A DNA stretch of 64,000 bases, from the IMG/VR virus record IMGVR_UViG_3300020202_000078, one strand, 5' to 3'. This DNA is from a virus. The notes under the pieces are model-generated. The model was not told where the DNA came from. It worked only from the letters and a program-made list of their open reading frames with translations, and ran no database searches. The position numbers were made by a program, and so were the translations under genes. Positions 211-63,320 of this stretch are shown here, piece by piece (the stretch's first letter is position 1; every line of letters begins with the position of its first letter).

Positions 211-331
211 ACCGCCTGGGTGTCCGCACCCGTTCACCAGTGGCCGCAAATCCCTTGCGGATCGGCCTTTCCGGCGTCTAGCGTCTCCCCGAACTGTGTT
301 TAGGTGTTCATATCAATCCGCTGCCGGATTG

Positions 332-11621: not shown

Positions 11622-12311
11622 CGGACGCTGTTGAATAGGTCGCACTGTGTAAGACGAGACCACCACACCGATGATTTCCGGGCCGTCATCCGCGTCTCGA
11701 ACGCTATCGATCCGAATGGGTTCTTGGAACGCCGGGTCGCTGGACCTTGGCCACAGGGCGACGCCCCGCTTTTCCTTGACCACTTCCTTGAGGGTTGTCT
11801 CCACAAGCCCTCCGCGACGGCGGCGCACCACAACGTGGTCACCCTCGCGCACGCCGATTTCTGCAGCTGGGCACACCACCACCATCGTCCCGTCGGGATA
11901 ATGCTGGTCCATGGAAGGTCCACGCACCCGCAAGGCGAACAACTGGGCGCCCTCAAAGCCCGCTAGATGGATCGGGATGACTTCCGGGTCGTCGGGCTCG
12001 TCGAAGACTTCAGCGAACACGCCAGCCTGTATCACGCCGATCACGGGCACCATTCGCGTGACCGCACGCATCCCGACTGGCGGAGACGGGGGCGGCATCT
12101 CGTCCAGGTCGCCGCGTCCGTAAAGGAGCCACTCGGGGGAGACGCGGAAGAACTTGCCGTAGCGCTCGGCCCGGCCAGCCGGGATCCCCCGCAACTTCCC
12201 CTCATGCTGGCTGTAAGTCGGGTAGGGGACGCCCATCGCCTCGGCCGCTGCCTTAGCGCTAGCGTAGCCTGCGCGCTCTCGCGCCAGCCGCAGCCGATCC
12301 CCCGGTTCCAT
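11607..12311 (-). CDS. cI: cI/LexA-like repressor (XRE HTH plus S24 peptidase domain)
   Basis: HTH LARERAGYASAKAAAEAMGV; C-terminal S24 region with GPSMDQHYPDGTMVVV. Confidence 0.8.
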   Translation of the reverse strand: MEPGDRLRLARERAGYASAKAAAEAMGVPYPTYSQHEGKLRGIPAGRAERYGKFFRVSPEWLLYGRGDLDEMPPPSPPVGMRAVTRMVPVIGVIQAGVFAEVFDEPDDPEVIPIHLAGFEGAQLFALRVRGPSMDQHYPDGTMVVVCPAAEIGVREGDHVVVRRRRGGLVETTLKEVVKEKRGVALWPRSSDPAFQEPIRIDSVRDADDGPEIIGVVVSSYTVRPIQQRPLITF

Positions 12312-12335: not shown

Positions 12336-12378
12336 ATATGCAAAAGGCAGTTGCGAAGCGGGTCTGCAAAATGCATAT
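12336..12378. promoter_or_regulatory. OR-like operator pair (ATATGCAAAAGGCAG; TGCAAAATGCATAT) between cI and cro
   Basis: Motif shared with OL. Confidence 0.65.
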
Positions 12379-12386
12379 TCACCGTC

Positions 12387-12617
12387 ATGCGCACCCATCA
12401 GGACATCATCCGGGACGCCGGGCCGCAGAAAATCCATGAGGCGGTCGGGTTTACGGGCCAGCTGAACACCGTCTTGTCGTGGCGGCAGCGAAACAGCATC
12501 CCGCGCGAGCACTGGGCGGCCCTGGCCGACGCGAAGATCGCGAGCCTCAAGGAGTTGGCGCTGGCTGCGCCGCCCCGGAAGCGGCGCTCCGCGTCACCGT
12601 CGCAGGTGGCCGCCTGA
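12387..12617 (+). CDS. cro: Cro-like small HTH regulator
   Basis: Divergent from cI; P22 Cro-like topology (..LSWRQRNSIP..). Confidence 0.55.
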   Translation: MRTHQDIIRDAGPQKIHEAVGFTGQLNTVLSWRQRNSIPREHWAALADAKIASLKELALAAPPRKRRSASPSQVAA

Positions 12618-12726: not shown

Positions 12727-13197
12727 ATGACCAAGGTCCGCGCTCCCTCAACCTTCGAAGACGCCATCGACCGGATCGTTGGGCGCATCACCATTGCTAA
12801 GGCGGCCGAGGTCGTCGGCAAAGGCGAACGGGTGATCCGGTACTGGTCGGACCCTGACGCCAATCGGTCGCCGTCTATCGAAGAAGCGGCGCTGCTGGAT
12901 GCGGCCTATCTGGAGGCCGGAGGCGGCGAACCGCCGATCTTGGCAGTCTATCAACTCCTCCTCGACCGCAGGGTAACCCCACCGGCCGATAGCGCGGAAC
13001 TCGCCAAGGTCAGTGGGGTGCTTGCTAAGGAGGTGGGGGAGGGGCTGGCCGCCTTGTTCAAGGCCTCTCAGCCCGGATCAACGCAGGCTGATCGGATGAT
13101 CGCTGAGCGGGAGCTGACAGACGTCGGGGAGGCTCTGAACTCCAGCCTTCGCGTCCTTGGCTCCCCTGCGAACGTGACGCCGCTGAGGTCCGCATGA
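12727..13197 (+). CDS. Putative CII-like transcriptional regulator
   Basis: HTH-like ITIAKAAEVVGKGERVIRYWS; position after cro. Confidence 0.4.
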   Translation: MTKVRAPSTFEDAIDRIVGRITIAKAAEVVGKGERVIRYWSDPDANRSPSIEEAALLDAAYLEAGGGEPPILAVYQLLLDRRVTPPADSAELAKVSGVLAKEVGEGLAALFKASQPGSTQADRMIAERELTDVGEALNSSLRVLGSPANVTPLRSA

Positions 13198-23322: not shown

Positions 23323-24993
23323 GTGGAGTGGTCCACCGCCTGCGTCGACTGGCAAGACCGGATTGTCGCCAGGCGCTCGCTGATCCCGTCACCACTGTTT
23401 GCCGATGAGGCCCGCGAGGCGCTGGAGGTCTTCAAGTCGCTGCGGATCGTGGACGCGCCCGGCAAACCGACTTTCGGTGAGGCGTGCGATCGGTGGGTGT
23501 TCGACTTCGTCTCATCGATCTTCGGCGCATATGACGCGGAGACGGGCAAGCGCCTGATCCGCGAGTTCTTCCTCCTGATCTCGAAGAAGAACTCCAAGTC
23601 CACCATCGCGGCCGGAATCATGCTCACCGCGCTGATCCGCAACTGGCGGCACTCGGCGGAACTTCTGATCCTGGCGCCGACCATCGAGGTTGCCCAAAAC
23701 GCCTACAACCCGGCCCGGGACATGGTGAAGGAGGACGAGGAGCTGACCGACCTCCTGCATGTGCAGGACCACCTTCGAACGATCACGCACCGCGAGAACG
23801 GCGCGATGCTCAAAGTGGTGGCGGCCGACACCGATACGGTCTCCGGCAAGAAGGCGGGTCACATCTTCGTCGACGAGCTGTGGGTGTTCGGCAAGCGCGC
23901 CAAGGCCGATGCAATGCTCCGCGAGGCGACCGGCGGCTCTGTGTCGAGGCCGGAAGGGTTCATCATCTGGGCGAGCACCCAATCGGACGAAGAGCCGGCC
24001 GGGGTGTTCAAGACCAAGCTGGACTATTTCCGCGATGTGCGGGACGGCAGGATCGAGGACCCCCGCAGCTTGCCGGTGATCTATGAGTTCCCGGAGGCGA
24101 TGGTTGAATCGGGCGAATATCTGAAGCCTGAGAACTTCTACATCACGAACCCGAACCTTGGCCGGTCGGTCGATCAGCGCTGGCTTGAGGATGAACTTCG
24201 CAAGGTCAGGGACGCGACCGGTGGCGAGAAGCAGGTCTTCCTCGCCAAGCACCTCAACATCGAAATCGGCCTGAAACTATCGAACAACCGATGGGCCGGT
24301 GCGGACTATTGGGAGGCCGCCGCCGACCCGACGCTTACGCTGGATGAGCTACTTCGGCGATCGGAGGTCTGCACGATTGGCCTGGACGGTGGCGGTCTGG
24401 ATGACCTTTTCGGCTTGGCGGTCGTCGGCCGATGCAGGGAAACCCGAACCTGGCTTCTGTGGAACCGGGCCTGGGCGCATGACGACGTCCTTCAGCGGCG
24501 CAAGGACATCGCCAGCAAGCTGAAGGACTTCGAGCGCGACGGCGACCTGGTGATCTGCAAGGACCCGATGGCGCCGATCATCCAGGCGGCGGAAATCGTC
24601 GAGCGCGTATATCTGGCCGGCCTACTGCCGGAAAAGGACGGGGTCGGCCTGGACCCGGCCGGCGTCGCGACGCTGGTTGACGAGTTGGAAGACAGGGGCG
24701 TCGGGATCGGCCTGCAGGTCGCGGTGCGGCAGGGATATGCGCTTTCTCCCGCATCCTGGGGATCTGAGATCAAATTGAAGAATGGCTCCCTGAAGCACGG
24801 TGGCCGACCGATGATGGCCTGGTGTGTCGGAAACGCGAAGGTCGAGGTTCGCGGCGGCGCGGTTGTCATCACCAAGCAGTCGGCGGGACGGGCCAAGATC
24901 GACCCGCTGGTGGCGTCGTTCAACGCGATGATGCTGATGAGCCGGAACCCGTCGGCGAAGTCGGCTCCCAAATACCAAATGATCGTAATCTAG
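23323..24993 (+). CDS. terL: Terminase large subunit
   Basis: Walker A-like ISKKNSKST; Walker [12 protein letters not shown]-terminal nuclease domain; GTG start. Confidence 0.85.
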
Positions 24994-49300: not shown

Positions 49301-50990
49301 CGACGCCTACTCCACCATGCATTGTCTCCGGGTCCAGCGAGACATCATGGACGCGACGCCATTGGCCGCCGAGCGGCTGATGCGCCAGGCCACGTCCAAG
49401 GCCAACTGCATCGCCACGAGTGACAGCTCGTGGTTTGAGCTGGTCAGCGGTTCGACCTGGACCCTCTACGTCAATATGCCGGATGGCCTTGCGCCAGACG
49501 TCGGAGCCTACCGGGTCCGCCCGGTGTCCACGTTCGGCGCAATCGTCTGGGGCCAGAACGTCGACCGCGACGGCGGGGCTGTCTACGACATCTTCTTCAG
49601 CCACTTCAACGCCGGCCTGGGGATCGTCAATGGCGGCCAGAACATCGACTATTCCGGCTGCGTATTCGCCCACAATCCAAAGCACATCACGAACAGCGGC
49701 GGCGGCTCGTTTACGGACTGTCTCTACTACTCGCGCGGCTACTCCACGAGCAACCTGCTGAACATCTACGCGCCGGATGCTCTGGGCATGTCGGCGATCA
49801 TCCGCGATGTCGTGATCGATAGCGACACGCCGGGTGGGTCGATCTACGTCCACCGGGGGGGAACTGAGTTCACAGGCTCCATCACTGACGACGTGATGAC
49901 CGTCGATTCCTTGCCGACTGGCGCGGTTACACTTCGTATCGGCTACGTCGTGAGAAACACGGCCGAGACGGTAGCGGTCGGCACCTACATCGCCGAGCAA
50001 CTCACCAGCACCGAGAGCGGCGGCACGCTTGGCTTGCGCGGCACCTACCGCGTCACCATCGGCGGACAGGCTATCGCCAGCGGTACGTTGGGCGCGGGCG
50101 GCAACTTCTTCTACGTCGAGGTTTCCGGCGTCTCCGACGTTATTGTTCCCGCCGCCTCCGGCGCCCTCGCGGGCGATCACCCCCAGGCTATCGACCAGAC
50201 CGAACACGCGCTGATCGAGGGTTACCACACCCACGGTTACTACACGGCGTTCGGCGAGGCCGGCAGCTGGGCCGTCCCGTGCGCCTCCATCTGCCGCTAT
50301 AGCCTCTGCACCGCCTGTTCGCGGAATACGTCGTTCGCCGACAAGCACGACAACGTCGTCATCGTGCGCAATGCCTCCATCGACGCCAACAATCGCGGGA
50401 TGCGGCTGCAGCGGCTTATGGAGGGCCATCAGGTCCACCATGAGACAGTCTTCGCCCGAACGGTCCAGACGGCCTATGGCGACGCCAACCCCGGCTCCGA
50501 CTATCTGGCAGCCATCTATGAAGTCGGCTCGACCGCCGCCCAACAGCAGGGTCAGACCCCGAGCTGCACGTACTCCCTCCTGGTCGCAGATTGTCCCCAC
50601 AGCACTGTCGGAACTCGGATTCGCTTGGACAGCGCCGCCGGCCAAGCGTTGCTGACCGACTGGAACATCATCGTCGTCTTCACGCCCGGGAACATGAGTT
50701 CCGCGGTATTCGGCGGGGCCACGAAGCTGACCTGGGACGAGTACCTGGTGGACTTCGCCCCGAACGACGCTAACAGCCGGTTCTTCGACTGTCGGGGTAT
50801 GGCGGGGGGGGCGGCCAACCTGTTCGTGGATCCGGACAACAACGACCTGCGCATTCGCACTGACACCGAGCTAGGCCGGGCAGTGCTGGCGGCAATGGCG
50901 GAGATGGGCGCCGGCGCGAGCTGGACCATCGGCGGAACACCTCGACGCCTCACGGCAGACGAGTACCTCACAACCCTGCAGCACGGCTAA
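46398..50990 (+). CDS. Tail fiber / tailspike (1530 aa) with four ~110-aa tandem repeats and a C-terminal beta-helix-like domain
   Basis: Repeats GxxFxFSTTTTDxDPGxGxIRxNNAT...GYRKVPV x4; pectate-lyase-like Gly/Asn-rich C-terminus. Confidence 0.75.
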   Translation: MQVTMERNGPPFGADGDALVYAGEVVAVGWRLLDDNDAVQDYANRSFALRVFGTLGVTPVNVAAEVVDDADGDYLLATLTGDQTAALVPSGRAGAVLRWSFDELVDGGRSVIESGEFRVKIAADPDLNEPAAGAGGAPAVIYNVPATSPIRTVVYSGAPGVSAYAAAVSAGYTGTPEEFAEALAENATAVSENIADINAAGATQVGLVNSAGTTQVANVNAAGSTQVAAVNSAGSTQTAAVNAAGAAAQSAIAADVATSGANAASAATSAADAALNAAYAGGVGFTFSTTTTDSDPGAGNIRYNNATPASVTFLYIDDTDVGGGTASGWVDTFDDVEGPVRGQIYLAEPGTLKYAVFDVTGAVVTGTGYRKVPVVWREGSATLPTNAARVNLQFTRAGVATGGVAMTFSSTTTDADPGNGNIRFNNATLASVTILYIDLQEVGGGSITAWIDSFDDVNGGVRGQLILNEPASGKFVLFNVTGSITDGGGYRKVPVTYVAGSSSNFTNGNRLLLRFAPAGSEAGIAFQFSTTITDADPGSGFIRFNSATVTAVTQIFADNNAAGGNAISGWLDTFDDADAAVKGQIYIVEPGTAKFTVFNVTGAVLDGTGYRKINVAWVAGVLPTNNARVLLTFARFGADADAAEIAQSADTYRFGKARYEAEIAERLAAYPAQQVRPTSWVLSGVTYNDDGTFTGTPGGTMTTTLTAAPWVDPAATRYMYAVSKSGTSGSVTLASRAHASIAYNPPAVETEPFPGTKKLAWANTSNGGTTVRGTTVTNTITFNVDDTIFEPEVCLTDSPFMPRIMPTLPAEPYIDPRPCWEETFETHRRWRNRRLTMRAAAETSITKAVNSLSGSDAAAGDRFNPKQNITGLTALGALADGAVVGLWGEWDNQGFGSSVGTVSKGLIFMAQPQGRRRASWSGETYRRQPWPRMNGDKDVTDQTWTLESGTCWKTTYTVNTGTNLAPVNDAYSTMHCLRVQRDIMDATPLAAERLMRQATSKANCIATSDSSWFELVSGSTWTLYVNMPDGLAPDVGAYRVRPVSTFGAIVWGQNVDRDGGAVYDIFFSHFNAGLGIVNGGQNIDYSGCVFAHNPKHITNSGGGSFTDCLYYSRGYSTSNLLNIYAPDALGMSAIIRDVVIDSDTPGGSIYVHRGGTEFTGSITDDVMTVDSLPTGAVTLRIGYVVRNTAETVAVGTYIAEQLTSTESGGTLGLRGTYRVTIGGQAIASGTLGAGGNFFYVEVSGVSDVIVPAASGALAGDHPQAIDQTEHALIEGYHTHGYYTAFGEAGSWAVPCASICRYSLCTACSRNTSFADKHDNVVIVRNASIDANNRGMRLQRLMEGHQVHHETVFARTVQTAYGDANPGSDYLAAIYEVGSTAAQQQGQTPSCTYSLLVADCPHSTVGTRIRLDSAAGQALLTDWNIIVVFTPGNMSSAVFGGATKLTWDEYLVDFAPNDANSRFFDCRGMAGGAANLFVDPDNNDLRIRTDTELGRAVLAAMAEMGAGASWTIGGTPRRLTADEYLTTLQHG

Positions 50991-51199
50991 GGGCGTCGAC
51001 TCGCATAGGCACGGGAGGTTGCTAGCGGTGCTGCGCTGCCGGCGGCGGGATCGCCGGGCCTTCGGCAGTGTTGGGCTCCATCAGCAATACCGCGATACCG
51101 AGCACGATGATTGCGATGGCGGCGACGCCAAACCAGAGTTTGAGGTTGAAGTCGATCTTCATGTCGATATTCAAGCGGTCCGATGGGCCGTTGGCAACT

Positions 51200-51400
51200 G
51201 GGATGCGCATGGGAAAGCTGGGGTGGATTTTGGCGGCGGAGGCGGCTCTTCTCCTCCTGCTGGCCTATGGCATCTGCCGCTACGTGTTCATCCACACCCC
51301 GTTTGCCAGCGTGTGCTTTTTCCTGTTCGGGGTGACGCTGGGCATGATGACGGTCACCGCCGGGCAACTTGTGAAGGCCTTGCCAGCCCGCCGGCAATGA
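51200..51400 (+). CDS. Small 2-TM membrane protein (holin-like), uncertain
   Basis: High GC3; hydrophobic; overlaps the 3' end of the convergent SGNH gene. Confidence 0.25.
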   Translation, partial: GMRMGKLGWILAAEAALLLLLAYGICRYVFIHTPFASVCFFLFGVTLGMMTVTAGQLVKALPARRQ

Positions 51401-52157
51401 TCTCCGCGAGCAGAGCAGTTCCCTCGGGTCCGGGGTGGACGCCCTGCTCGTAGTATTCCGCCGACCAGGGAACTTCGATCACCTCCGGCGCCATGTTCCT
51501 AATCCAGCGGAGCGGGTCGGTGCGCTGGTTCATATCGTCGGGGATGGGGTAGCCGACCACCACCACGCGGCCCTTGTAGCGGCGTAGAAACGCCTCCCAC
51601 TCGGGCTTCCAGGGCGGCAGTTCACGGTAAACGATGGCCTTCTTCTTGGCGATCCATCGGTCATAGGCGAACGCCATGGCCAGGATCGGCCGCTTCGTCG
51701 GCATCTGCACCTCGCCCAGCCATTCGCCCTGCCGGCTGTCCGTGGCGTTCAGAACGAAGACGATGGTGTCGAGCTGCAGCACTTCGGGGCGGGCCTTGAT
51801 GTAGGCCAGCTGGTTCGCCAAGCCCCAGCCGCCAGCCGACACCGGCCACACGTCGCGGCCGATGCGTTCCTCCAGCTGCGGGCCAAGACGCTCGGGCTGA
51901 TCGTGAAGGGTGCCGCCGTTGACGATGCTGTCGCCGAGCAAGAGGACGCCTTCGGGAACGAACGGCTGTTCCACCCCCATTGATAGCTCGTTGTAGGCGT
52001 AGCGACGAAGGAACACCGACCCGCGCTGATTGGGAGCGTGGATGTAGCCCTCAGGCCCCAAGTGATGCAGGGGAACGGCGGTCACGAACCGAACCATCAG
52101 TTCGACGCACAACAACGCGATGACGGCGACCATCGCCGCCCAACCGATACGCCCCAT
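51354..52157 (-). CDS. SGNH/GDSL-family hydrolase with N-terminal membrane anchor
   Basis: LLLGDSIVNGG GDS(L) block; N-terminal TM. Confidence 0.65.
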   Translation of the reverse strand: MGRIGWAAMVAVIALLCVELMVRFVTAVPLHHLGPEGYIHAPNQRGSVFLRRYAYNELSMGVEQPFVPEGVLLLGDSIVNGGTLHDQPERLGPQLEERIGRDVWPVSAGGWGLANQLAYIKARPEVLQLDTIVFVLNATDSRQGEWLGEVQMPTKRPILAMAFAYDRWIAKKKAIVYRELPPWKPEWEAFLRRYKGRVVVVGYPIPDDMNQRTDPLRWIRNMAPEVIEVPWSAEYYEQGVHPGPEGTALLAEIIAGGLARPSQVARR

Positions 52158-52201
52158 TCAGCGAGTATGTCGGCGCCCCGACCGTCTTGCAACTCCAGCA
52201 T

Positions 52202-52366
52202 TCACCATTCGCGCAGGTTGCACGGCTCGCAGTATCCGAACTGATCGATATCGCGCCTCACCCGCCGGCAGGTGCGGCACCTGAGCAGGGGCCCGGTTCC
52301 GTGGTCGGCCTCGGGATCGGTTACCTCTACGAGCCAGCGCCAGAAGCGGGCCAGGATCGTCCTCAT
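52202..52366 (-). CDS. Small zinc-ribbon protein
   Basis: RCRTCRR...YCEPC. Confidence 0.3.
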   Translation of the reverse strand: MRTILARFWRWLVEVTDPEADHGTGPLLRCRTCRRVRRDIDQFGYCEPCNLREW

Positions 52367-52528
52367 ACATCCAGTGAAGGGCCGCCGCCTATCGGCGTCA
52401 ATACGCAGATCGCAGCCGTGGGGATGCAGCAACATCCCCACGGCCCCGACCCCGGACATGGAGCAAGCCCACGCCCGAAGCCGCACCGCGCGGCAGGGAG
52501 AGGGAGCGCACCGTCTGGTTAACTAACG

Positions 52529-52837
52529 GTGAGCAAGCCGCCGGAGAACCGAATGACATTGCCCTCTTGGATCGCTTTGGCGTCGCTGTTTGTCCTGATC
52601 AGCCTCCAGGGGCTCGCCTTCGCATTTTGGGCCGGCCGGCTGTCTCAACGGGTGACTGGGCTCGAAAAGCAGGGGGACGGCGATGCCACCCTCGCCGAGA
52701 AGGTCATCCGCCTCACGGTCGAGATGGAGCACGCCAACGCGAGCCTGTTGAAGATGGGAAATCAGCTTGAGGGCGTGAACCGCCAACTCGGGAACATCGC
52801 CATGGGTCGAATGGGGCAGTCGGGAGAAATGGTGTGA
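52529..52837 (+). CDS. Membrane-anchored coiled-coil protein
   Basis: N-terminal TM then coiled coil. Confidence 0.45.
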   Translation: MSKPPENRMTLPSWIALASLFVLISLQGLAFAFWAGRLSQRVTGLEKQGDGDATLAEKVIRLTVEMEHANASLLKMGNQLEGVNRQLGNIAMGRMGQSGEMV

Positions 52838-53089
52838 GTGCAATCAATGAATGAACGCAAGATCAACTTCGACCTCAGCTTCAATATCCCCATCCTGATG
52901 AGCATCGTTGGAGCGGTCGCCGCCGGCTCGATGTGGGTGGCCACGGTGAACAACAAGCTCGACACCCTGGCTGTTGTGGTGGCTGACCAGGCTGCGACCA
53001 GGGTGCAGATCGAAGACCTCCGAAATCAAGTCCTCAAGAACCGGGAAGAGACCCTCGAAAACCGCCGAGTAATTACGGAGGGAGAATGA
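52838..53089 (+). CDS. Membrane-anchored coiled-coil protein (second of pair)
   Basis: N-terminal TM then coiled coil. Confidence 0.45.
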   Translation: MQSMNERKINFDLSFNIPILMSIVGAVAAGSMWVATVNNKLDTLAVVVADQAATRVQIEDLRNQVLKNREETLENRRVITEGE

Positions 53090-53113
53090 CGGCGACTGAG
53101 CACGCTGCCCGAT

Positions 53114-53227
53114 GTGGGATTATTTCGCCATCGTCGGCATTCTCGCGCATGTCTTGGTCGCGGCCGGAGTTGGGCTCTACTTCGTCGGCGTGGCCATCGT
53201 GAAGTCCATGATCGGGGTCCGGTAGCT
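53114..53227 (+). CDS. 37-aa hydrophobic peptide
   Basis: MWDYFAIVGILAHVLVAAGVGLYFVGVAIV; GC3-rich. Confidence 0.25.
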
Positions 53228-53261
53228 CGCCGGCCTTGTAGCGGATAAGCTGAAGTAGGGG

Positions 53262-53501
53262 TTAGAGCGCCGGAACCATCCAAGTGGCGGCGACCCCAAG
53301 CCGGGCCATTTCTTCCCTGATCTTCGCCCCTTTGAGCCTCGACTCCTCGGTGTTCCACGCCTTCAGTTCGGCGAGCTGTTTCGGCGTTACGAACATACCG
53401 TCGCCGACTTTGACAAGCTCTCCGGCGGCAACCTTGGCGTTGAGGTCGGCGAGCATTGCTTCGAAGCGCCCGTCGTCCTCGGTGATGATCTCGGTGGTCA
53501 C
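53262..53501 (-). CDS. Hypothetical protein
   Basis: ORF. Confidence 0.4.
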   Translation of the reverse strand: MTTEIITEDDGRFEAMLADLNAKVAAGELVKVGDGMFVTPKQLAELKAWNTEESRLKGAKIREEMARLGVAATWMVPAL

Positions 53502-53502
53502 G

Positions 53503-53919
53503 CTAGGCCGCCTGTCTCACCGGCACGTGCTTGTACATCCATCCACCCGGCGGATCGGGTTCGATGAACTCAATCTTGTCGGTGGGTCTCTTGGACGTGT
53601 CGTCGGTGAAGACGCACGACTCAAACACGCCGGCAGGCTTGCCCTCAAAGGTGGCCAGCGCGCACCCGGCAGGCCTCACCCATACGCGGGGGTTGGTATC
53701 GACACGGGCGAGGATGTTGGCCTTCTCCGGCGCGCTGCGGACGACGCGCCATTCGGCCGGGGTAAGGCGGATGCGCTTCTGACGCGCCCATAGCTCGATG
53801 GCTTTGGCTCTCCAGTCGCCGACCGGCTGCGCGGCAGCGGCGGTGACAGCGACGGCCGATCCGGCGACGCCAGCGAGAACGGCTCTACGGGCGATCATTT
53901 CCATGCCTGAGAGTCCCAC
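53503..53919 (-). CDS. Secreted (Tat/Sec signal) periplasmic protein
   Basis: MIARRAVLAGVAGSAVAVTAAAAQP signal. Confidence 0.45.
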   Translation of the reverse strand: MGLSGMEMIARRAVLAGVAGSAVAVTAAAAQPVGDWRAKAIELWARQKRIRLTPAEWRVVRSAPEKANILARVDTNPRVWVRPAGCALATFEGKPAGVFESCVFTDDTSKRPTDKIEFIEPDPPGGWMYKHVPVRQAA

Positions 53920-53982
53920 GAAAGCGGCGGCTTTTCAACTCTCTCGCCGCACCCCAACCCACCCCCACCGCAAGAGGTATCT

Positions 53983-54261
53983 ATGACGCTCCCCAAGATC
54001 GTCACCGACCTGTTTACCGGCCCTGACGGCCACACCTGGCACATGGGCCGGTTCGGCGCGGCCATGACGGTGATCAGCGGTCTTCCCCTGCCTTGGGTGC
54101 AGCTCTGGCGCACAGGTGTCCTGGACCTTGCGGCGACGGGCGTCTTCTACAGCGGTGTCGCGGCTGGGGCCTGGGCGATGGCCCAGGGCGCCAAGAACAT
54201 GGACCTGATGCCTGAGGGGTCCGCCACCACAACCACCACCACGACAACGGAGACCCTGTAA
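53983..54261 (+). CDS. Holin candidate (2 TM) with poly-Thr tail
   Basis: Immediately upstream of and coupled to the endolysin. Confidence 0.5.
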   Translation: MTLPKIVTDLFTGPDGHTWHMGRFGAAMTVISGLPLPWVQLWRTGVLDLAATGVFYSGVAAGAWAMAQGAKNMDLMPEGSATTTTTTTTETL

Positions 54262-54638
54262 TGTGGACCTGGGATCAATCCGCCGGAAAACTCTACCACA
54301 ACGGCCAGCTCGTCTCGACCGGCTACAGCGGCAAGGCGCGCGGGAAGAACAACCCGGCCATGCAAGGCGAGCGAGGCTTCGGTCCGATCCCGCGCGGCAA
54401 GTGGAAGATCGTCAGCCGCTATGACAGCAAGAACGTCGGCCCCTACGCCCTGACCCTTCACGCTGTCGATGGCAAGTTGGACGACACGCACGCCCCAACG
54501 GGGAGGGGAGCGTTCCGCATCCACGGGGACAGCGCGCGGGCTCCCGGCACGGCGAGCCAAGGCTGCATCATCCTTCCCCGGGCCATTCGCGAGAAGATCT
54601 GGACGAGCGGGGATCGTGACCTGGAGGTGGTGGAGTGA
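54261..54638 (+). CDS. Endolysin candidate, DUF2778/Tlde1-like L,D-transpeptidase-fold peptidase
   Basis: GAFRIHGD...GTASQGCIIL His/Cys motif; lysis-cassette context. Confidence 0.55.
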   Translation: MWTWDQSAGKLYHNGQLVSTGYSGKARGKNNPAMQGERGFGPIPRGKWKIVSRYDSKNVGPYALTLHAVDGKLDDTHAPTGRGAFRIHGDSARAPGTASQGCIILPRAIREKIWTSGDRDLEVVE

Positions 54639-55039
54639 TCCCCCGCTGGCTCATCGGAGCGGGCGTCGCCCTCTTCCTCATGCTCCTGGGCGCCTTCGTG
54701 TTCGGAGGCCCCATCGTCTCGTTCTGGAAAGCCCAGACCCACAAGTGGCAGGCCAAGGAAGAGACGGCGCAGGACAACGCCGCCGCGCGAGGCCTTGAAG
54801 CCGGGGCTGGCCAGGCCCTCGCCACCGAACAAGCCGCCATCACCGAGCGCATCATCGAGCGCAACAACGAAAGCATCCGCTATGTGGAGAAGGCCAATGC
54901 AGCCCCGGACGCGCAAACTCCTCTCGGCTCTGATCGTCAGCAGCGTATGCGTGACCACTATGTCAGCCTGTGCAAACAGCGGCCGGCAGTCTGCGCCAGT
55001 GGCGAAAGCCCCAAGGGTGACGACCCCGCTTTACGCTAA
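54635..55039 (+). CDS. i-spanin (Rz-like)
   Basis: N-terminal TM plus periplasmic coiled coil. Confidence 0.55.
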   Translation: MIPRWLIGAGVALFLMLLGAFVFGGPIVSFWKAQTHKWQAKEETAQDNAAARGLEAGAGQALATEQAAITERIIERNNESIRYVEKANAAPDAQTPLGSDRQQRMRDHYVSLCKQRPAVCASGESPKGDDPALR

Positions 55040-55274
55040 GGCCCCCTGCAAGCTCTACGGGCCTCCGGAGGGGCGGGAGCTGACCCTGCAAGACCTGGAG
55101 ATCACGGCGGCCATCCGAGGGGTGGAGATCGTCACCTGTGACGAGAAGCGGGTACTGGCGGACAAGGCCAACATCGAGCAGCAAAAGGCCCTGGACGCCT
55201 GGGAAGCTGAGCGCGCCAAGCGGCGGTGCGAGTGGTGGCGGTTCGGGACATGCAAGCCACCTGACCCCGGCTAG
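54897..55274 (+). CDS. o-spanin (Rz1-like lipoprotein) overlapping the i-spanin in the +1 frame
   Basis: Lipobox LIVSSVCVTTMSAC; Pro-rich; C-terminal Cys. Confidence 0.5.
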   Translation: MQPRTRKLLSALIVSSVCVTTMSACANSGRQSAPVAKAPRVTTPLYAKAPCKLYGPPEGRELTLQDLEITAAIRGVEIVTCDEKRVLADKANIEQQKALDAWEAERAKRRCEWWRFGTCKPPDPG

Positions 55275-55354
55275 TGACCTCACTTAGGGCCTTACTGAGG
55301 ACAGTAGCCCCCTGACTGATAGCCCTTGAGACTTAGGTCTCGGGCCAACAGAAA

Positions 55355-55388
55355 GGCCCCGCTGGCGATTGCTGGCGGGGCCTTTTGC
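55355..55388. terminator. Bidirectional rho-independent terminator between the lysis cassette and the SPFH operon
   Basis: ggccccgc...gcggggcc stem followed by TTTTG. Confidence 0.6.
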
Positions 55389-55404
55389 CGTTCGGAGGGC
55401 TGGC

Positions 55405-56232
55405 TTAGCGGATGTTGACGAACGGGGTTGCGCCGGGGCCGACGACCTGCGGCATCTGGCCATTCCACTTGGCGATGGCCTGCTGTTCCAGAACCTGCGG
55501 ATTGGCGCGGAGGGCCTCGCCACGGAGGCGGTATGCTTCGGCGTCACCCTTGGCGATGGCGATCTTCTCCAGGGCTTGCGCCTCCGCCACTTTCACCTTG
55601 GCGGTGGCCGCGAGAACGTTCTGGTCGGCTTGGGTGCGCGACTTGATGCTTTCGAGGATCAGGTCGGGGAAGCGGATCGAGCCGATCCATTCCAGTTGGG
55701 AGATTGTCACCCCCTCCTTCGACCATTTGGTCTGGACGGTCTTGAGGGCGCGCTGGATCACCTGCTGACGCCCGCCAGCCAAAAGGTCATCGACGCCGAC
55801 CTTCTCCGTTTCGGCGGCGATGGCGGCCCGCACGTCGTTGCGGATGGGTCCGTCGAGCAGTTGGGGAAAGCTGAGCCGGTACTTGGCGTACAGGGCTGGC
55901 GCGGCTCTCGGCTCGACCTTCAGGGTGGCGGCCACGTCGGCGGTCATGGGCAGGCCGGTGCGGTCGGTGAAGACGATCTCTTCGTTTTCGTCGCCGTCGT
56001 CGGTCTTCTCGCGGGTGTAGGGGTAGGTCTTCTGGATCGTCGGATAGACCTCGATACGCTCCCCGATGCCGGTGGCGTGCCACCCGTTCGGCAAGGCTTC
56101 CTGCTGGACACCGGCGCCAGAGCCGAGGGTCTTCACCTTCACGCCGGCGTTGCCCGGCTCAACGGTCTTGCCGCAAGCGGCGGTGGAAAGCGCGGCGACA
56201 CAGACGGCCGCCAGGATGATGGCTCGCTTCAT
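55405..56232 (-). CDS. SPFH/band-7 (HflC/stomatin-like) domain lipoprotein
   Basis: Lipobox LSTAAC; SPFH core; RBS GAGGA. Confidence 0.6.
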   Translation of the reverse strand: MKRAIILAAVCVAALSTAACGKTVEPGNAGVKVKTLGSGAGVQQEALPNGWHATGIGERIEVYPTIQKTYPYTREKTDDGDENEEIVFTDRTGLPMTADVAATLKVEPRAAPALYAKYRLSFPQLLDGPIRNDVRAAIAAETEKVGVDDLLAGGRQQVIQRALKTVQTKWSKEGVTISQLEWIGSIRFPDLILESIKSRTQADQNVLAATAKVKVAEAQALEKIAIAKGDAEAYRLRGEALRANPQVLEQQAIAKWNGQMPQVVGPGATPFVNIR

Positions 56233-56470
56233 TGGTTCCTCGTAGGTTGGAAGTGCTTGGCGACGTCGCGGAACATGACCAGGGCGACCCAGGCCAGACC
56301 GAGAACGCCGAACGCGGCGGCGGCAACAGCGCCGAACAGGCCGTAGTCGCTCGCCGAGCCCCAGAGGGGGCCAACGACGCCACGGAACAGGGTCATTGCG
56401 GCGGCGATCCAGAGGAGGGCGTAGGCCGCCCCCTTCGCCGCGCCGATGAACTGGCTTTCGTACACGGGTG
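56229..56470 (-). CDS. Small 2-TM membrane protein partnered with the SPFH gene (NfeD/YbbJ-like arrangement)
   Basis: GTG start with RBS GGAGA; hydrophobic. Confidence 0.4.
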
Positions 56471-56577
56471 ATCTCCTGCGGCGACGGGGCGGGGGTTGCA
56501 AAATCGCCGTGACGTAGATATAAACGCGACGTTGATTTTGAGCAATACATGCCGGAAGAAAAAACGACGCCACGTAG

Positions 56578-56832
56578 ATGAGTTGTGCGACTCCCCCCGA
56601 CGCGCTATCCGCTGCCCTGGTGAAGAACACGCCCTGGCAAGCGCGGCTGAAGGCTGCCGGCCTGACGCAGAAGCGTCTCGCCGCGCTGCTGGGCGTGGCT
56701 GAGAACACGATCTCCCGCCAGATGAAGGGGGATTGGGACGTGCCAGGCTATGTGGAGGCGTTCGTGGTCGCTTGGGAGGAAAGCCCCCCGGACGTCAGGG
56801 AGCGGGTCGCCAAGCGGCTGGGCAAGCCCTAG
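56578..56832 (+). CDS. XRE-type HTH regulator divergent from the SPFH operon
   Basis: AGLTQKRLAALLGVAENTISRQMKG. Confidence 0.5.
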   Translation: MSCATPPDALSAALVKNTPWQARLKAAGLTQKRLAALLGVAENTISRQMKGDWDVPGYVEAFVVAWEESPPDVRERVAKRLGKP

Positions 56833-56921
56833 ACCCGGGCAGAGCCTTCGAGGGCGTCGTGTCTTAGGTACCGGGCCACACGGCTGAGGTAAACTCGGTC
56901 AAAATCGGTAAACTCGATCAA

Positions 56922-56953
56922 GCCCCTCGGTTCAGACCGGGGGGCTTTTCGCG
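56922..56953 (+). terminator. Rho-independent terminator
   Basis: gcccctcggttcagaccgggggg followed by CTTTTCG. Confidence 0.55.
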
Positions 56954-56959
56954 TTTGGG

Positions 56960-57238
56960 CTAGGCGGTCTGCGCGTTCGGAGCGTCGTCATCCTCGTACA
57001 GGCGCTTGCCGGTCTCGTCTTCGATCCAGACCGTATAGCGCTCGTCGCCGCATTCGGACTCATGGTCATCGTCGCCGGCTGCTTGCGCGAAGAACAGGCC
57101 TCGGTTGCAGTCACAAGACCAGTTGCCCATGTCCCAAATGAACTCGGCAGCCTCTAGGTCTTCCGCAAACCAAAGGTCGCGGTCAGTCAGGGAGCGAACC
57201 TCGGCCGTCGTGTTGTCGCGGATGAAGACCGTGGTCAT
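56960..57238 (-). CDS. Hypothetical acidic protein
   Basis: ORF. Confidence 0.45.
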   Translation of the reverse strand: MTTVFIRDNTTAEVRSLTDRDLWFAEDLEAAEFIWDMGNWSCDCNRGLFFAQAAGDDDHESECGDERYTVWIEDETGKRLYEDDDAPNAQTA

Positions 57239-57678
57239 GCTGCGGCTTTTGTCAGGCCAGCAAGGACGGCGATGTTCCGCTGATATTTCCAGAACCGCTT
57301 GTGGTCCTTCTGGGTCGGGTTGGGAATGCGGGACAGGTCGGCGTTGTCCTGCAGGTCCGCCATCTTCACGATGCGGGCGATGGGGTTGCGGGACACGCGC
57401 TTGATGAAGGCGCCATAGGCCTCGCCATCGCGGCGGGTCAGGGCCTCGACGGCTTCGATCACTGGCGCGGAGAAGCCTTCGCGTGCGAGGTCGGCAGCGG
57501 TTACGTCGGTGTCCTCCAAGACGTCGTGCAGGACCGCCGCGATGCGCGCCTCGTCCCCGTCAACGTCGATGGCAAACATGACGCGGAGCGGATGGAGGAT
57601 GTACGGCGCACCGCCATTGTCCACTTGGCCAGCGTGGGCGGTGACCGCAATCTGAATGGCGCGCTCCAGGCTGCTCAT
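57235..57678 (-). CDS. Small alarmone hydrolase (RelA/SpoT-type HD domain (p)ppGpp hydrolase, SAH)
   Basis: AHAGQVDNGGAPYILHPLRV...IAAVLHDVLEDTDVT...KMADLQDN. Confidence 0.75.
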   Translation of the reverse strand: MSSLERAIQIAVTAHAGQVDNGGAPYILHPLRVMFAIDVDGDEARIAAVLHDVLEDTDVTAADLAREGFSAPVIEAVEALTRRDGEAYGAFIKRVSRNPIARIVKMADLQDNADLSRIPNPTQKDHKRFWKYQRNIAVLAGLTKAAA

Positions 57679-57971
57679 GCTGCGGCTTCTGTCTTGCTGG
57701 GGTGGGATAGGATGTGGTCGATGACCCTGACGAAAGCCTCCGCTACAATTCCCTCGCTGATGAAGAAATCGGGGTTGCTGTCGGCGGCAGCGGCCACAGC
57801 CTCCGCCCCCGGCTCCCGTAGAGCGGTGAGGATGGGCGCGATCATGTGTCGATAGGCCGGCCATGCGCCGTTGACGTACTTCTGCACGACAGGCTGTTCG
57901 GCCTTGCCGTGTTTGAGGCAGTCGGCCAGACAGGCCGCCCGCGCCAGCCGTTCGATCACCGGGTTTTCCAT
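57675..57971 (-). CDS. Hypothetical protein
   Basis: Coupled ORF. Confidence 0.45.
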   Translation of the reverse strand: MENPVIERLARAACLADCLKHGKAEQPVVQKYVNGAWPAYRHMIAPILTALREPGAEAVAAAADSNPDFFISEGIVAEAFVRVIDHILSHPSKTEAAA

Positions 57972-57972
57972 G

Positions 57973-58269
57973 TTAGGCCAACTCCTGGATAGCGACGGCC
58001 CTGGCGGCGAGACCTTGACGCAATACGTCGCGGAGTGCGTCGCCTAGGCTCGATGGGTGGCCGATATCGGCATGGAAGCCGTCGTCGAACCCCTCGATCG
58101 CGAGGAGCGGTCGATCGTCCCACTGGAAGTCTGGTCCTGCGCTAGCGTGACAAGAGACGGAGCATTTGCCCAACGAGAACCACCAGCCCGGAAGGGCGGC
58201 CTGGAACTCGTCGATGGCGGCTCGGAGGTCGTCGGTTTCGCCGGGCGTTTCCATACCCAAGAATCCCAC
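57973..58269 (-). CDS. Hypothetical protein (paralog of 16970-17233)
   Basis: LPGWWFSLGKCSVSCHASAGPD. Confidence 0.5.
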   Translation of the reverse strand: MGFLGMETPGETDDLRAAIDEFQAALPGWWFSLGKCSVSCHASAGPDFQWDDRPLLAIEGFDDGFHADIGHPSSLGDALRDVLRQGLAARAVAIQELA

Positions 58270-58529
58270 GAAAACCCTTGAGATTCAAGCAAAAGCGGGC
58301 GATATTAGCCGGGCTGCGGCGGCGGGGAAGGACCCGCTACCGGATGGCTCAGACCCGAGCCGGCTGCCCGCACCAGGCATATCGAAAGATGTGCGACGGC
58401 GCGACCCGAAAGGGAGGGGGCAGACGGTAGCCATGGCGCGCGCGCCGCCTACACGTCGGGAGCCGGTATCAAGCCCGGCCCGCAGCATCTTCCCTCGCCA
58501 AGCCCTACGCGACCAACTACCGTCCCAAC

Positions 58530-58763
58530 ATGGATGAATTAGAGCGCAGACTGGCCGCCCTGGAACTCTGGGCCATCGAGGTCGGCAGCTTCATAGAGCC
58601 CCAGCACCTTGCCGACGCGGCCCGTTCAATCCGCTCCTGCATTGACACCGTAGACCCCGAAGAGCGGGATATCCGCATGGGAGCGTTAGGGCTTATCGAG
58701 GACGCTCAACGCCGCTGGGCGCCGCCTGCCGAGGGGCTGTGTGTTCCTGGGGAAGACCCGTAG
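58530..58763 (+). CDS. Hypothetical protein
   Basis: ORF. Confidence 0.35.
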   Translation: MDELERRLAALELWAIEVGSFIEPQHLADAARSIRSCIDTVDPEERDIRMGALGLIEDAQRRWAPPAEGLCVPGEDP

Positions 58764-58771
58764 ACTGGCGG

Positions 58772-59155
58772 TCATCTGCCGATGTCCGTGAGGTAGTCGA
58801 TTGCCGCTTCGTGGCGGGCTTTGATGTCAGCCTTCTCGAAGGGATCTAGGCGGAAGCCTTCAGGGGCGTCGCACTCGTTCAGCAGGTAGGTGACGGCGCG
58901 GGTGAGGCCCTCAAGGTGATCCGCACCCCCTGCCGCATTGGATGCTCGGAACCCCGCCTCAAAGGCTGCCCACAGCGCGCGTCTGGAGTGGCCGGGATAG
59001 CTCGCCTGACGACAGGCGTTCTCAAAGTCGTCTGTCGCTGCGTAGGCGCACCATGCAAGCTTCACGGGCTCGTCCGGACGATGGCCGTTGCCCGCCCCGT
59101 CACTTCCCGTCTGCGTGTTCGCAGGCTCAGGGCGTCGTTCGCCATGGCTGTTCAT
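58772..59155 (-). CDS. Hypothetical protein; the same frame stays open ~190 bp upstream and encodes a Cys/His-rich zinc-ribbon-like segment without any ATG/GTG/TTG
   Basis: Manual translation of 59156-59350 gives FSFICGCEHCGHKYRRGDGYADNYFCTQVVPGQHCPECG. Confidence 0.4.
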   Translation of the reverse strand: MNSHGERRPEPANTQTGSDGAGNGHRPDEPVKLAWCAYAATDDFENACRQASYPGHSRRALWAAFEAGFRASNAAGGADHLEGLTRAVTYLLNECDAPEGFRLDPFEKADIKARHEAAIDYLTDIGR

Positions 59156-59351
59156 GCCGCACTCAGGGCAGTGCTGGCCGGGGACGACCTGCGTGCAGAA
59201 GTAGTTGTCGGCGTATCCGTCTCCGCGCCGGTACTTGTGACCGCAATGCTCGCAGCCGCAGATGAAGGAGAAGTCGTTCCGATATTGATCCCACTCCTGG
59301 TCAGTGGGATCGGTCGCGGCGGGACTGAGGCTGGCGGGAGTTGGAGCGCGC

Positions 59352-59543
59352 TCATGCTTTACCCGTGGCGCGGGAGATGGCGACTTCGGCTTTGCGAATG
59401 AACGTCATGCCCTCGCGGGCGATTGCGGGGGTGGTGCTCAGCAGGGCGAAGCGGAACAGTTCCTTGACCTCGCGAAGGCTCTCCACCAGATCGGCGATCA
59501 GCTCGTCCTTCTCCCCTTGCGAGCGCTCTTTGGGCGTAGTCAT
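59352..59543 (-). CDS. Small protein paralogous to 8767-8949
   Basis: Shared ERSQGEK and ISRATGKA; flanking DNA duplicated. Confidence 0.45.
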   Translation of the reverse strand: MTTPKERSQGEKDELIADLVESLREVKELFRFALLSTTPAIAREGMTFIRKAEVAISRATGKA

Positions 59544-59761
59544 GGGGCGGTCTTCTTGACGGCAGCGGCGACCGCATCCCGATCCAGCCACAGCACCAAG
59601 CCGAGCATCTTCGTCCCCTTGAGGTCGATGGGCTGCCCCGTCCCAAAGGTGATCTTCGTGCCCTTCTTCTCGCTGTAATTCAGGTCGATGGCGCACTGGT
59701 CGAGGTTCTGAAACTGGACGTTGTCATCGCCGACGGCGAGAATGAGTTCGGACATTTTCAT
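59540..59761 (-). CDS. Hypothetical small protein
   Basis: RBS GGGAGGAA duplicated from 8951-8981. Confidence 0.45.
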   Translation of the reverse strand: MKMSELILAVGDDNVQFQNLDQCAIDLNYSEKKGTKITFGTGQPIDLKGTKMLGLVLWLDRDAVAAAVKKTAP

Positions 59762-59970
59762 TGGGGGTTCCTCCCGGGACTGAGGCTGGCGTCTGCGCGG
59801 CGCTCCTCTTGGTCGCTGCCACTTGGCTTCGGCGTGTTTGTAGGGGCGCACCAAGGGCACGGTTCGGTGCGCCAAGCGGCCTCGGCATGGTCGAACCATC
59901 CGATCTCACCCCGACCATTGCAGGCCTCGCACACCCGCTTCTTCCGCCGGGGCTTCGGCCTGATACCCAT
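59758..59970 (-). CDS. Small zinc-finger protein
   Basis: CEACNGRG...CPWC. Confidence 0.35.
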   Translation of the reverse strand: MGIRPKPRRKKRVCEACNGRGEIGWFDHAEAAWRTEPCPWCAPTNTPKPSGSDQEERRADASLSPGRNPQ

Positions 59971-59993
59971 CGCGGGTTTCCACAGATGATTGC

Positions 59994-60233
59994 TCACGGC
60001 ACCAGCTCCCTCATTGGGACCTCAAGAAAGTCGGCGATCTTGCGGAGCCGGGAGACGGGCAGATCGGAGCGCCCGCACTCGATGTTGGCGACCTGTGCCC
60101 GCGACAAACCGGCAGCGCTCGCCACTTCGTCCTGCGTTTTTCGCTTGGCCTTGCGGGCCGCCTGGATAAACAGGCCGACGTGAGCCTTCTCGATGGGCAG
60201 ATCACCCGTGCCGTCGCAGTAGGGGCACTTCAT
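59994..60233 (-). CDS. XRE-family HTH regulator with N-terminal zinc ribbon
   Basis: CPYCDG; KTQDEVASAAGLSRAQVANIECG. Confidence 0.6.
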   Translation of the reverse strand: MKCPYCDGTGDLPIEKAHVGLFIQAARKAKRKTQDEVASAAGLSRAQVANIECGRSDLPVSRLRKIADFLEVPMRELVP

Positions 60234-62355: not shown

Positions 62356-62580
62356 TCAGGGACTAGGGGGCTCAGTCAAAGCCTGCCGAAGGTCGGCAAC
62401 CTCTTCCAGCCGCCAGGCAATCTCCTCCTGCAGATCTTCCAATCGGGCGCGCATGGCGGCCTCGATAGTGGGGTACTCGCCGTTGATCCCGGCGGGGATG
62501 TCGTGGATGTAGCCCGCGTCGCTCGATATGAAGGTCGCCGGTTCATCCTCGTGGTGTTGCCAAGTCCAGGTCAGTTCCAT
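62356..62580 (-). CDS. Hypothetical protein
   Basis: ORF. Confidence 0.35.
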   Translation of the reverse strand: MELTWTWQHHEDEPATFISSDAGYIHDIPAGINGEYPTIEAAMRARLEDLQEEIAWRLEEVADLRQALTEPPSP

Positions 62581-63237: not shown

Positions 63238-63261
63238 CTTCCGATGGCTCCCCGGGCAGGA
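63238..63261. repeat. attR: attR core
   Basis: Exact match to 187-210. Confidence 0.8.
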
Positions 63262-63320
63262 CTCGAACCTGCGACCCGGCGGTTAACAGCCGCCTGCTCT
63301 ACCAACTGAGCTACCGAGGA
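63245..63320 (-). tRNA. tRNA-Asn (GTT anticodon)
   Basis: Reverse complement tcctcggtagctcagttggtagagcaggcggctgttaaccgccgggtcgcaggttcgagtcctgcccggggagcca; 76 nt; cloverleaf with a CUGUUAA anticodon loop. Confidence 0.9.

Follow-up and report, generated by a model that had tools for sequence, protein, structure and literature searches.

The locus described here occupies positions 55,405–56,832 of a 64,000-nt viral DNA sequence (IMG/VR record IMGVR_UViG_3300020202_000078; this whole stretch is called the window below), which has a GC content of 64% and belongs to a temperate phage or prophage. It comprises a two-gene unit on the minus strand and a divergent regulator gene on the plus strand. 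The minus-strand unit consists of a gene for a small protein of 78 aa with two transmembrane (TM) segments (56229–56465), followed by a gene for an SPFH/Band_7 lipoprotein of 275 aa (55405–56232). The plus-strand gene (56578–56832) encodes an XRE-family helix-turn-helix (HTH) protein of 84 aa. Between them lies a divergent regulatory region of 112 bp (56466–56577) that carries a palindrome and copies of the motif NCGTWGAT, and a terminator hairpin is found at each end of the cassette. The best reading of this arrangement is a moron-like, XRE-associated cargo slot that holds an extracytoplasmic SPFH module.

The 381-aa open reading frame (ORF) that reaches position 56550 was an upstream extension of the true 275-aa SPFH gene. 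The 275-aa product matched Pfam Band_7 (PF01145) over residues 23–220 (80.5 bits against a cutoff of 23.6; E 2e-22), and its residues 1–275 aligned with profile positions 81–360 of the 379 in phrog_200, annotated as 'lipoprotein' (E 1.1e-63). Its N-terminus, MKRAIILAAVCVAALSTAAC, was a lipoprotein signal peptide with a lipobox that reads ...AALSTAAC20, and the cysteine at position 20 was invariant in 33 SPFH homologues. The lipobox was also seen in 14 of the 16 distant phage copies inspected, the Kayvirus protein MbpS and the copy of Ruegeria phage RpAliso being ambiguous. The AlphaFold2 model (predicted local distance difference test, pLDDT, 79) contained the SPFH alpha/beta domain, a 54-residue helix (190–243) and a short C-terminal part. 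Foldseek aligned it with full-length subunits of the prohibitin, HflK/C, stomatin, erlin, QmcA-YbbJ and flotillin cages at a probability of 1.00, with E 1e-13 to 1e-9 for the top matches (prohibitin, HflK/C, stomatin, erlin, and QmcA cages). As modelled, the protein combines all elements of a cage-forming SPFH architecture, namely the domain, the long wall helix and the C-terminal cap region.

The sequence-only reading had described this protein as an HflC/stomatin-like SPFH lipoprotein. The SPFH domain, the lipobox and the fold agreed with that description, but the HflC part did not hold. No NCBIfam family, including the HflK/HflC equivalog models, matched at E <= 0.01, and the only match in a sequence search of PDB was prohibitin-2 (E 0.004). 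HflK/HflC of E. coli, which work with FtsH, resemble the protein in the SPFH fold, the long helix and the periplasm-facing cage, the cage in our case being predicted from the model. However, they are encoded by an operon of paired paralogues and carry an N-terminal TM segment, whereas the window has a single SPFH gene with a lipobox and without an HflK/HflC family match. Judged from its sequence, the protein is predicted to be lipid-anchored and necessarily extracytoplasmic, and it is not an HflC.

The small gene in front starts with GTG, 6 nt after GGAGA, and its TGA stop overlaps the ATG of the SPFH gene (ATGA), which indicated translational coupling. With two hydrophobic segments, its product is the 2-TM operon partner that had been proposed earlier. 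The loop between the two helices reads VVGPLWGSxSDxG, and the protein matched nothing in Pfam (E <= 0.01), PHROG, NCBIfam or PADLOC. The arrangement had also been called NfeD-like, and this stood as an analogy of gene order only: the OB-fold of NfeD (PF01957) was absent at the same Pfam threshold, and a protein of 78 aa leaves no residues for it beyond the two TM helices. SPFH-NfeD operons, such as E. coli QmcA-YbbJ (PDB 8z5g), B. subtilis FloA-NfeD2 and Pyrococcus stomatin PH1511 with the protease PH1510, likewise combine an SPFH gene with a small membrane partner. They differ in having an N-terminal TM anchor and an NfeD/OB-fold partner, in contrast to the lipid anchor and the 78-aa partner without an OB-fold in the window.

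A word-indexed search with so short a partner returned only five proteins, and an exhaustive profile search was needed. The latter recovered 37 clusters among 1.84 billion representatives, all of 53–95 aa, which shared one layout: TM1, an arginine, a (V/I)xxLWGSxSDxG loop, TM2 and a basic tail. Partner homologues of 72–95 aa lay directly upstream of SPFH genes in all partner-family contexts examined, and two distant family members that were located again both directly preceded an SPFH gene. Small TM ORFs directly upstream of SPFH were found in Brevundimonas and Caulobacter phages and in Burkholderia phage PhiBt-E264.1. In the phiCbK-type phages Magneto and Bajun, the upstream ORF was longer (112–116 aa), with three to four hydrophobic segments and without the loop motif, and was 22–28% identical to the partner in the window.

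Beyond Caulobacterales, a 2-TM ORF of 49–79 aa (annotated as 102 aa in phi1026b) with the loop P-x-(L/M)-x-S-x-x-(D/S)-(T/S) was found just upstream of SPFH. It was present in Burkholderia phages PhiBt-E264.1 and phi1026b, in an Stx2d phage and the record MH445381 (without annotation in either), in Vibrio phage CKB-S1, Stenotrophomonas phage Paxi, Ruegeria phage RpAliso, Klebsiella phage KpCHEMY26 and Pseudomonas phage UFV-P2; in E. coli phage 4MG and Klebsiella phage NDO71, one small gene stood between it and SPFH. An hhalign comparison of the Caulobacterales set with the other set gave a probability of 80% (E 1.5e-5) with the motifs in register, which was suggestive rather than proof of a common origin, given the TM composition. 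Annotations systematically overlook the partner gene or leave it without a name. At about 2350–2538 of locus L083 (the Stx2d phage LC567830.1) and at about 620–850 of locus L100 (MH445381.1), 2-TM ORFs of about 60–78 aa with the P-x-L-x-S loop directly precede SPFH and abut it, but are not annotated.

The SPFH family proved to be widespread. Of 50,697 phage records searched with tblastn, 717 contained an SPFH homologue, and in 692 of these the match covered at least 80% of the length. By host genus, these comprised 275 records from Staphylococcus (mostly Kayvirus-type, judged from sampled rows), 72 from Pseudomonas, 45 from Klebsiella, 42 from Erwinia, 38 from Escherichia, 33 from Bacillus, 31 from Burkholderia, 26 from Caulobacter (phiCbK type, 56–58% identity) and 24 from Salmonella, besides others. 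The carriers included N4-like, rV5-like, FelixO1-like and jumbo phages, as well as temperate phages such as the Stx2d phage and Burkholderia phages phi1026b and phi644-2. In addition, 637 plasmids carried an SPFH homologue; 616 of them were non-mobilizable, and many were about 108–110 kb in size. Their size and immobility suggest that they are phage-plasmids. The nearest named relatives are the lipoproteins of phrog_200, i.e., the 'putative band 7 lipoprotein' of phiCbK-type phages, gp48 of phi1026b and the 'HflC/HflK family inner membrane lipoprotein' of BcepF1, which share the full-length match, the lipobox and an upstream small TM ORF; the phiCbK-type and Bajun proteins were 57–65% identical to that of the window. 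In most other phages, the pair is co-directional within early, middle or late operons, whereas in the window it forms a separate, terminator-insulated unit that faces the XRE gene.

Four further phage backgrounds from metagenomes, whose flanking genes differed completely, contained close SPFH homologues (64–79% identity). The pair lay among early genes with GapR, GcrA and a serine recombinase in L074, among small unknown genes in L076, between terminase GpA and gpW/portal in L077, and among SbcCD-like, DNMK and RNR genes in L079. In all four, an ORF of 72–85 aa directly preceded SPFH, with the 4-bp start overlap in three of them, and no XRE gene was found near the pair. The pair was also carried by the Caulobacter isolate genomes sp. 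602-2 and Root655, with SPFH proteins 58–60% identical to that of the window. The partner in 602-2 was 39% identical to the window partner and shared the motif VVGPLWGSxxDxGL. The surroundings of the chromosomal pairs contained no phage genes: one pair was accompanied by an ABC transporter, a transglutaminase and TamAB, and the other by Usp, a fatty-acid hydroxylase, KAS III and an M48 peptidase. Overall, the phage-borne copies were 64–79% identical to the SPFH protein of the window, and the chromosomal copies 57–60%. These comparisons show that the SPFH and 2-TM genes form an ancient conserved unit, which is shared by numerous unrelated phages and by host chromosomes of at least Caulobacter, and that the small partner, not the XRE gene, is the constant neighbour of the SPFH gene.

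A scan of genome contigs with the SPFH protein alone returned no close relative, only distant and mostly TM-anchored SPFH genes of Gemmatimonadota, whose partner had one TM segment and a zinc ribbon. The same scan of viral contigs gave four loci, of which only one was close. Other SPFH subfamilies have other partners. In the Gemmatimonadota loci L005, L026 and L030 (about 5670–5940), the TM-anchored SPFH gene was preceded by a gene for a protein of 84–87 aa with one or two TM segments and a CPxC...CPxC zinc ribbon, and on a 339-kb viral contig (L063) a ClpP-like protease gene (5396–5935) lay directly upstream of the SPFH gene.

This distribution bears on a role that the sequence-only reading had proposed as possible, a modulator of FtsH-dependent lysis-lysogeny control. 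In that scenario, the phage SPFH protein would mimic or compete with host HflK/C, thereby modulate the degradation of a CII-like activator by FtsH, and bias the decision between lysis and lysogeny. In its favour, the best-known function of SPFH cages is the regulation of membrane proteases, the fold matches included HflK/C-FtsH structures, and the phage in the window is temperate, as it encodes an integrase and a CI-like repressor of the S24 type. In the Stx2d phage, moreover, the module sits between the CI region and xis/int. The same idea, that phage SPFH genes act like HflC on CII, has been put forward for other phages as speculation (PMC10269572, PMC4936722). However, at least about 300 of the 717 phage records belong to strictly lytic groups (Kayvirus and phiCbK-like), and because the family is abundant in such groups, lysogeny control cannot be its general role. 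Host chromosomes carry orthologous pairs outside any prophage, and in other temperate and lytic phages the module is surrounded by head, DNA-metabolism or early genes and shows no tie to immunity regions. The features of the protein itself argue in the same direction, i.e., the lack of an HflK/HflC match in NCBIfam, prohibitin-2 as the nearest solved sequence, the lipid anchor, and a single gene without a paralogue pair; nor is the XRE gene specific to the SPFH module. The ORF at 12727–13197, proposed as a CII-like regulator, showed no match to Phage_CII (PF05269) or to any other Pfam or NCBIfam family; its sole match was phrog_38866, of unknown function, and the CII assignment was not confirmed. 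The proposal of FtsH-dependent lysis-lysogeny control was thus left unsupported and partly contradicted by the distribution of the family, and we regard it as highly improbable. A protease-client role as such may still be compatible with the results.

The divergent regulator predicted earlier was confirmed at 56578–56832, with a borderline match to Pfam HTH_3 (24.2 bits against a cutoff of 23) and a match to HTH_31 below the cutoff (25.6 against 27). Only weak generic HTH matches were found in PADLOC. Homologues that were 56–79% identical occurred in three other temperate-phage contexts, after lysis genes, near a recombinase, and divergent from a different cargo. The cargo that faced XRE on the opposite strand was a PAPS-reductase gene in L090, ORFs of 120 and 65 aa in L092, and three ORFs of 68, 62 and 137 aa in L088; apart from the generic PAPS-reductase domain, no Pfam or PADLOC match was found among these cargo genes. 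The XRE gene stands with different neighbours in each phage, and by this comparison it belongs to the slot, independent of the SPFH module, with an exchangeable facing cargo. It is probably the local repressor and autoregulator of the slot. A toxin-antitoxin interpretation of XRE was rejected: the HipB/MqsA-type HTH matches were only sub-threshold, the genes are divergent and not co-directional, and no toxin-like partner was found. The authors of the Burkholderia phage CSP3 genome listed a PAPS reductase and an SPFH gene both as morons (PMC10269572), and these are the same two cargo types as in the XRE slot.

The intergenic region contained the imperfect inverted repeats and the repeated sequence reported before. 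The arms of the palindrome (56499–56515 and 56524–56540) are 17 nt each and 76% complementary. A 20-mer with the core NCGTWGAT occurred in three direct copies, at 56512, 56529 and 56572, the last of which abuts the XRE start codon. The repeated sequence ACGTAGAT was found four times in the window against 0.45 expected, with two copies in the intergenic region. A further copy at 11418, near the immunity region, was dismissed; since it lies inside the ORF 10896–11621 and is probably due to chance, control of the cassette by the main repressor was not indicated. Promoter-like hexamers were recognised by eye on both strands (plus strand, TTGCAA at 56496–56501 and TATAAA at 56519–56524; minus strand, TTGCTC at 56545–56540 and TATATC at 56522–56517; spacing 17 nt in each case), and these pairs, with 9/12 and 7/12 matching positions, overlap the palindrome. 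A riboswitch or small RNA in this region was rejected, as the RNA fold was no better than that of shuffled sequences (z -0.1) and all Rfam matches were sub-threshold and taken as noise.

The region upstream of each of the four XRE genes had two to four copies of NCGTWGAT, one of which invariably lay right where the XRE gene begins. Altogether, the 398 bp of XRE-upstream DNA from the four phages contained 11 copies, compared with 24 in the other 88 kb (Poisson P about 5e-19), and 8 of the 11 came from the three loci that had not been used to define the motif. The repeats form a phylogenetic footprint of a putative operator that travels with the XRE gene.

The statement that the unit is bracketed by terminators was also borne out. 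A bidirectional intrinsic-terminator hairpin with a 16-bp stem (55351–55386) lies between the convergent lysis cassette on the plus strand and the SPFH operon on the minus strand. The fold of the 65 nt at 55340–55404 had -38.3 kcal/mol on the plus strand and -32 kcal/mol on the minus strand (z -3.6 and -2.9), and none of 200 shuffles was as stable. The second hairpin (56920–56947) lies between the XRE gene (plus strand) and a convergent minus-strand operon that ends at 56960; its folds had -25.1 and -20.9 kcal/mol (z about -4), none of 200 shuffles was as good, and its sole Rfam match was sub-threshold, to the terminator-like part of sX6. Both hairpins were missed by a terminator-scanning program and were recognised by folding against the 200 shuffles. 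The cassette is thus insulated by its own terminators, and the occupancy of the slot varies in related phages (L088, L090 and L092), both of which are features of a moron.

In phage lambda, the lipoprotein gene bor follows the spanin genes Rz/Rz1 on the opposite strand. The unit in the window resembles bor in being a lipoprotein gene placed after the spanins, on the opposite strand, flanked by terminators and in a variable slot; it differs in having two genes plus a dedicated regulator gene, and the SPFH family is unrelated to Bor. This likeness of position and orientation, together with the unrelated cargo of the slot in sister phages, could point to a lysogenic-conversion lipoprotein of the envelope that benefits the host, in stress tolerance or host interaction, with no role in the phage cycle. 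PM0222 of Pasteurella multocida, a prophage lipoprotein described as HflK/C-like, occurs in outer-membrane vesicles and acts as a virulence factor (PMC9872710), and would be a second precedent of this kind besides Bor. However, hundreds of lytic phages, which never form lysogens, have conserved the SPFH module, and the strict coupling of the lipoprotein gene to that of an inner-membrane partner speaks for a complex in the inner membrane. On balance, we consider pure host benefit quite unlikely.

Directly ahead of the SPFH unit, and convergent with it, lies the lysis cassette on the plus strand. It consists of a holin-like gene of 92 aa (53983–54261), a gene for a Tlde1/YkuD-fold protein of 125 aa in the endolysin position (54261–54638; Pfam Tlde1_dom, 4.6e-15; phrog_24118, of unknown function), an inner-membrane spanin-like gene (54635–55039) and, overlapping the latter, an ORF for an outer-membrane spanin-like lipoprotein that ends at 55274. 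Such a neighbourhood might suggest a lysis-timing accessory, in which the cage organises or restrains holin or endolysin export at the inner membrane. A parallel exists in Kayvirus, where mbpS and mbpV, the latter encoding a 1-TM protein, are located between lysK and tgl and were guessed to aid the Sec export of Tgl (PMC7150955). MbpS is a distant SPFH homologue (25% identity), likewise preceded by an overlapping gene for a small membrane protein; MbpV, however, has one TM segment and a long charged tail and is not of the 2-TM P-x-L-x-S type, and the pair lies in the lysis region of a lytic Gram-positive phage. In the window, the module is on the opposite strand and behind a terminator. In most contexts, including Bajun, Magneto, PhiBt-E264.1, L074, L077, L079, the Stx2d phage, phi1026b and 4MG, no annotated lysis gene was adjacent, and a consistent link of the module to lysis genes was rejected after about 20 contexts had been sampled. 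A role in lysis timing is therefore very unlikely.

Another explanation is superinfection exclusion or abortive infection, in which a periplasmic cage would block incoming DNA at the inner membrane or collapse the membrane. The insulated, moron-like architecture with its own regulator is in keeping with it. T5 Llp and TP-J34 Ltp are exclusion proteins that are lipoproteins, as the extracytoplasmic SPFH protein is predicted to be, and in lytic phages the family is often found among early or DNA-metabolism genes, as are T4 imm and sp. Neither the SPFH protein nor the partner matched a model in PADLOC-DB 2.0 at E <= 0.1, which left the earlier suggestion of an abortive-infection module without support. 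Neither protein has a toxin-like or sensor domain, the copies in Caulobacter chromosomes look like housekeeping genes, and our literature search found no published exclusion phenotype. We rate this explanation as unlikely.

Taken together, we favour a picture in which an SPFH lipoprotein cage with a 2-TM partner acts on the inner membrane as an XRE-regulated moron, to which we assign a probability of roughly 0.5. The lipoprotein would assemble into a ring or cage at the periplasmic side of the inner membrane, and the 2-TM partner, either as the nucleus of this assembly or enclosed in it, would take the place of NfeD in classical SPFH operons. In E. coli, aspartate at position +2 of a lipoprotein is the signal for inner-membrane retention, and its presence at this position in the enterobacterial and Burkholderia copies is in keeping with such a location. 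The cage might then set apart a patch of membrane or a client membrane protein, the textbook class of client being membrane proteases, so that the turnover or stability of inner-membrane proteins would be altered in the infected or lysogenic cell. The phage copy might do what the host copy does. As to regulation, an XRE dimer would bind the repeats and the palindrome that overlap both putative divergent promoters and repress them, giving a regulated moron that is positionally like lambda bor.

Several observations weigh against this picture. Position +2 of the lipoprotein is glycine in the window copy (Cys-Gly-Lys-Thr), so that in an alphaproteobacterium it may be sorted to either the inner or the outer membrane. 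PM0222, a relative by description only, was found in outer-membrane vesicles (PMC9872710). The homology of the partner beyond Caulobacterales consists of a short motif and 10–17% identity; in Erwinia phage Coenus no TM ORF was present in the two genes upstream of SPFH, and in Pseudomonas phage PUTH1 only a 1-TM ORF was. The composition of the cassette did not differ from its surroundings, so it does not form a foreign island and recent acquisition was not visible. Finally, a strict sigma-70 scan found no promoter in the intergenic region, and for this reason the promoters given above are putative.

A more far-reaching version of the favoured picture is possible, though we hold it only tentatively. 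The phage proteins may represent a distinct and widespread class of extracytoplasmic SPFH cages, in which a mini-partner replaces NfeD and which phages use for a specific inner-membrane task. This class might be shared by phages of Proteobacteria, phage-plasmid-like replicons and some host chromosomes, and the task could be, for example, the exclusion of superinfecting DNA or the shielding of a membrane client from proteolysis or defence effectors. In the literature, phage SPFH genes have been noted in genome papers, and we found no test of a role in the phage cycle there; the one experimental study that came up dealt with PM0222 of P. multocida (PMC9872710), and a 2026 paper stated that the reason why phages carry SPFH genes is still unclear (PMC13239085).

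The carrier is a temperate phage of Caulobacterales type. Besides the genes discussed above, family matches identified an integrase (5–1516, plus strand), an Erf recombinase (4812–5693, minus strand) and the large terminase (23323–24993), and the S24-peptidase CI-like repressor lies at about 11607–12290 on the minus strand. A megablast search of positions 50000–60000 against phage genomes gave no matches. Within the immunity region, the gene in the Cro position (12351–12617, plus strand) had a sub-threshold match to NCBIfam NF046037, 'carph-isopro domain' (31.1 against 38 bits), and no Pfam HTH match. The 241-aa ORF at 10896–11621 (plus strand) adjoins the CI-like repressor, has no family match and falls outside the usual pattern of high GC content at third codon positions; it could represent a further accessory gene in this area.

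In the lysis region, the Tlde1/YkuD protein, with an L,D-transpeptidase fold, stands between the holin-like gene and the overlapping spanin pair and is a candidate non-canonical endolysin. The sister phages L090 and L092, which have the same XRE slot, carry Phage_lysozyme in its place. A GDSL-lipase/acylhydrolase-like gene (51354–52157, minus strand; sub-threshold, 22.9 bits) follows the 1530-aa tail-fibre gene, and L090 (1–1073) has a clear Lipase_GDSL_2 gene beside the lysozyme; the product may be a receptor- or envelope-modifying esterase. On the other side of the cassette, a four-gene operon that ends at the 56920–56947 terminator includes a gene for an HD_4 protein, a RelA/SpoT-type HD hydrolase (57235–57678, minus strand; phrog_990 'metal-dependent phosphohydrolase', E 2.8e-53; Pfam HD_4, 4.4e-7), which may be a phage alarmone or nucleotide hydrolase. 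ARAGORN called a tRNA-Trp within the structural-gene region (31300–31379, plus strand) and an 88-nt tRNA-Ile (62454–62541). A tRNA-Asn gene (63245–63320, minus strand) is located close to the right end of the window, opposite the integrase at its left end; in a circular genome, the phage attachment site attP may therefore be associated with a tRNA.

The locus is an ordinary member of a large phage family that is annotated and functionally unstudied, and its analysis mainly corrects the lysis-lysogeny reading. What it adds is a conserved 2-TM partner that had been overlooked, along with an XRE slot whose cargo can be exchanged. More than 700 sequenced phages and over 600 plasmids, most of them non-mobilizable, carry SPFH lipoprotein genes, and the usual guess of an HflK/C-like action on CII does not fit this distribution. 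The two-gene unit, the chromosomal pair of the host and the XRE slot with its interchangeable cargos provide handles for functional study in the tractable Caulobacter system. If the tentative reading of a distinct class of extracytoplasmic cages is true, it would provide a function for one of the larger PHROG families that still lack one.

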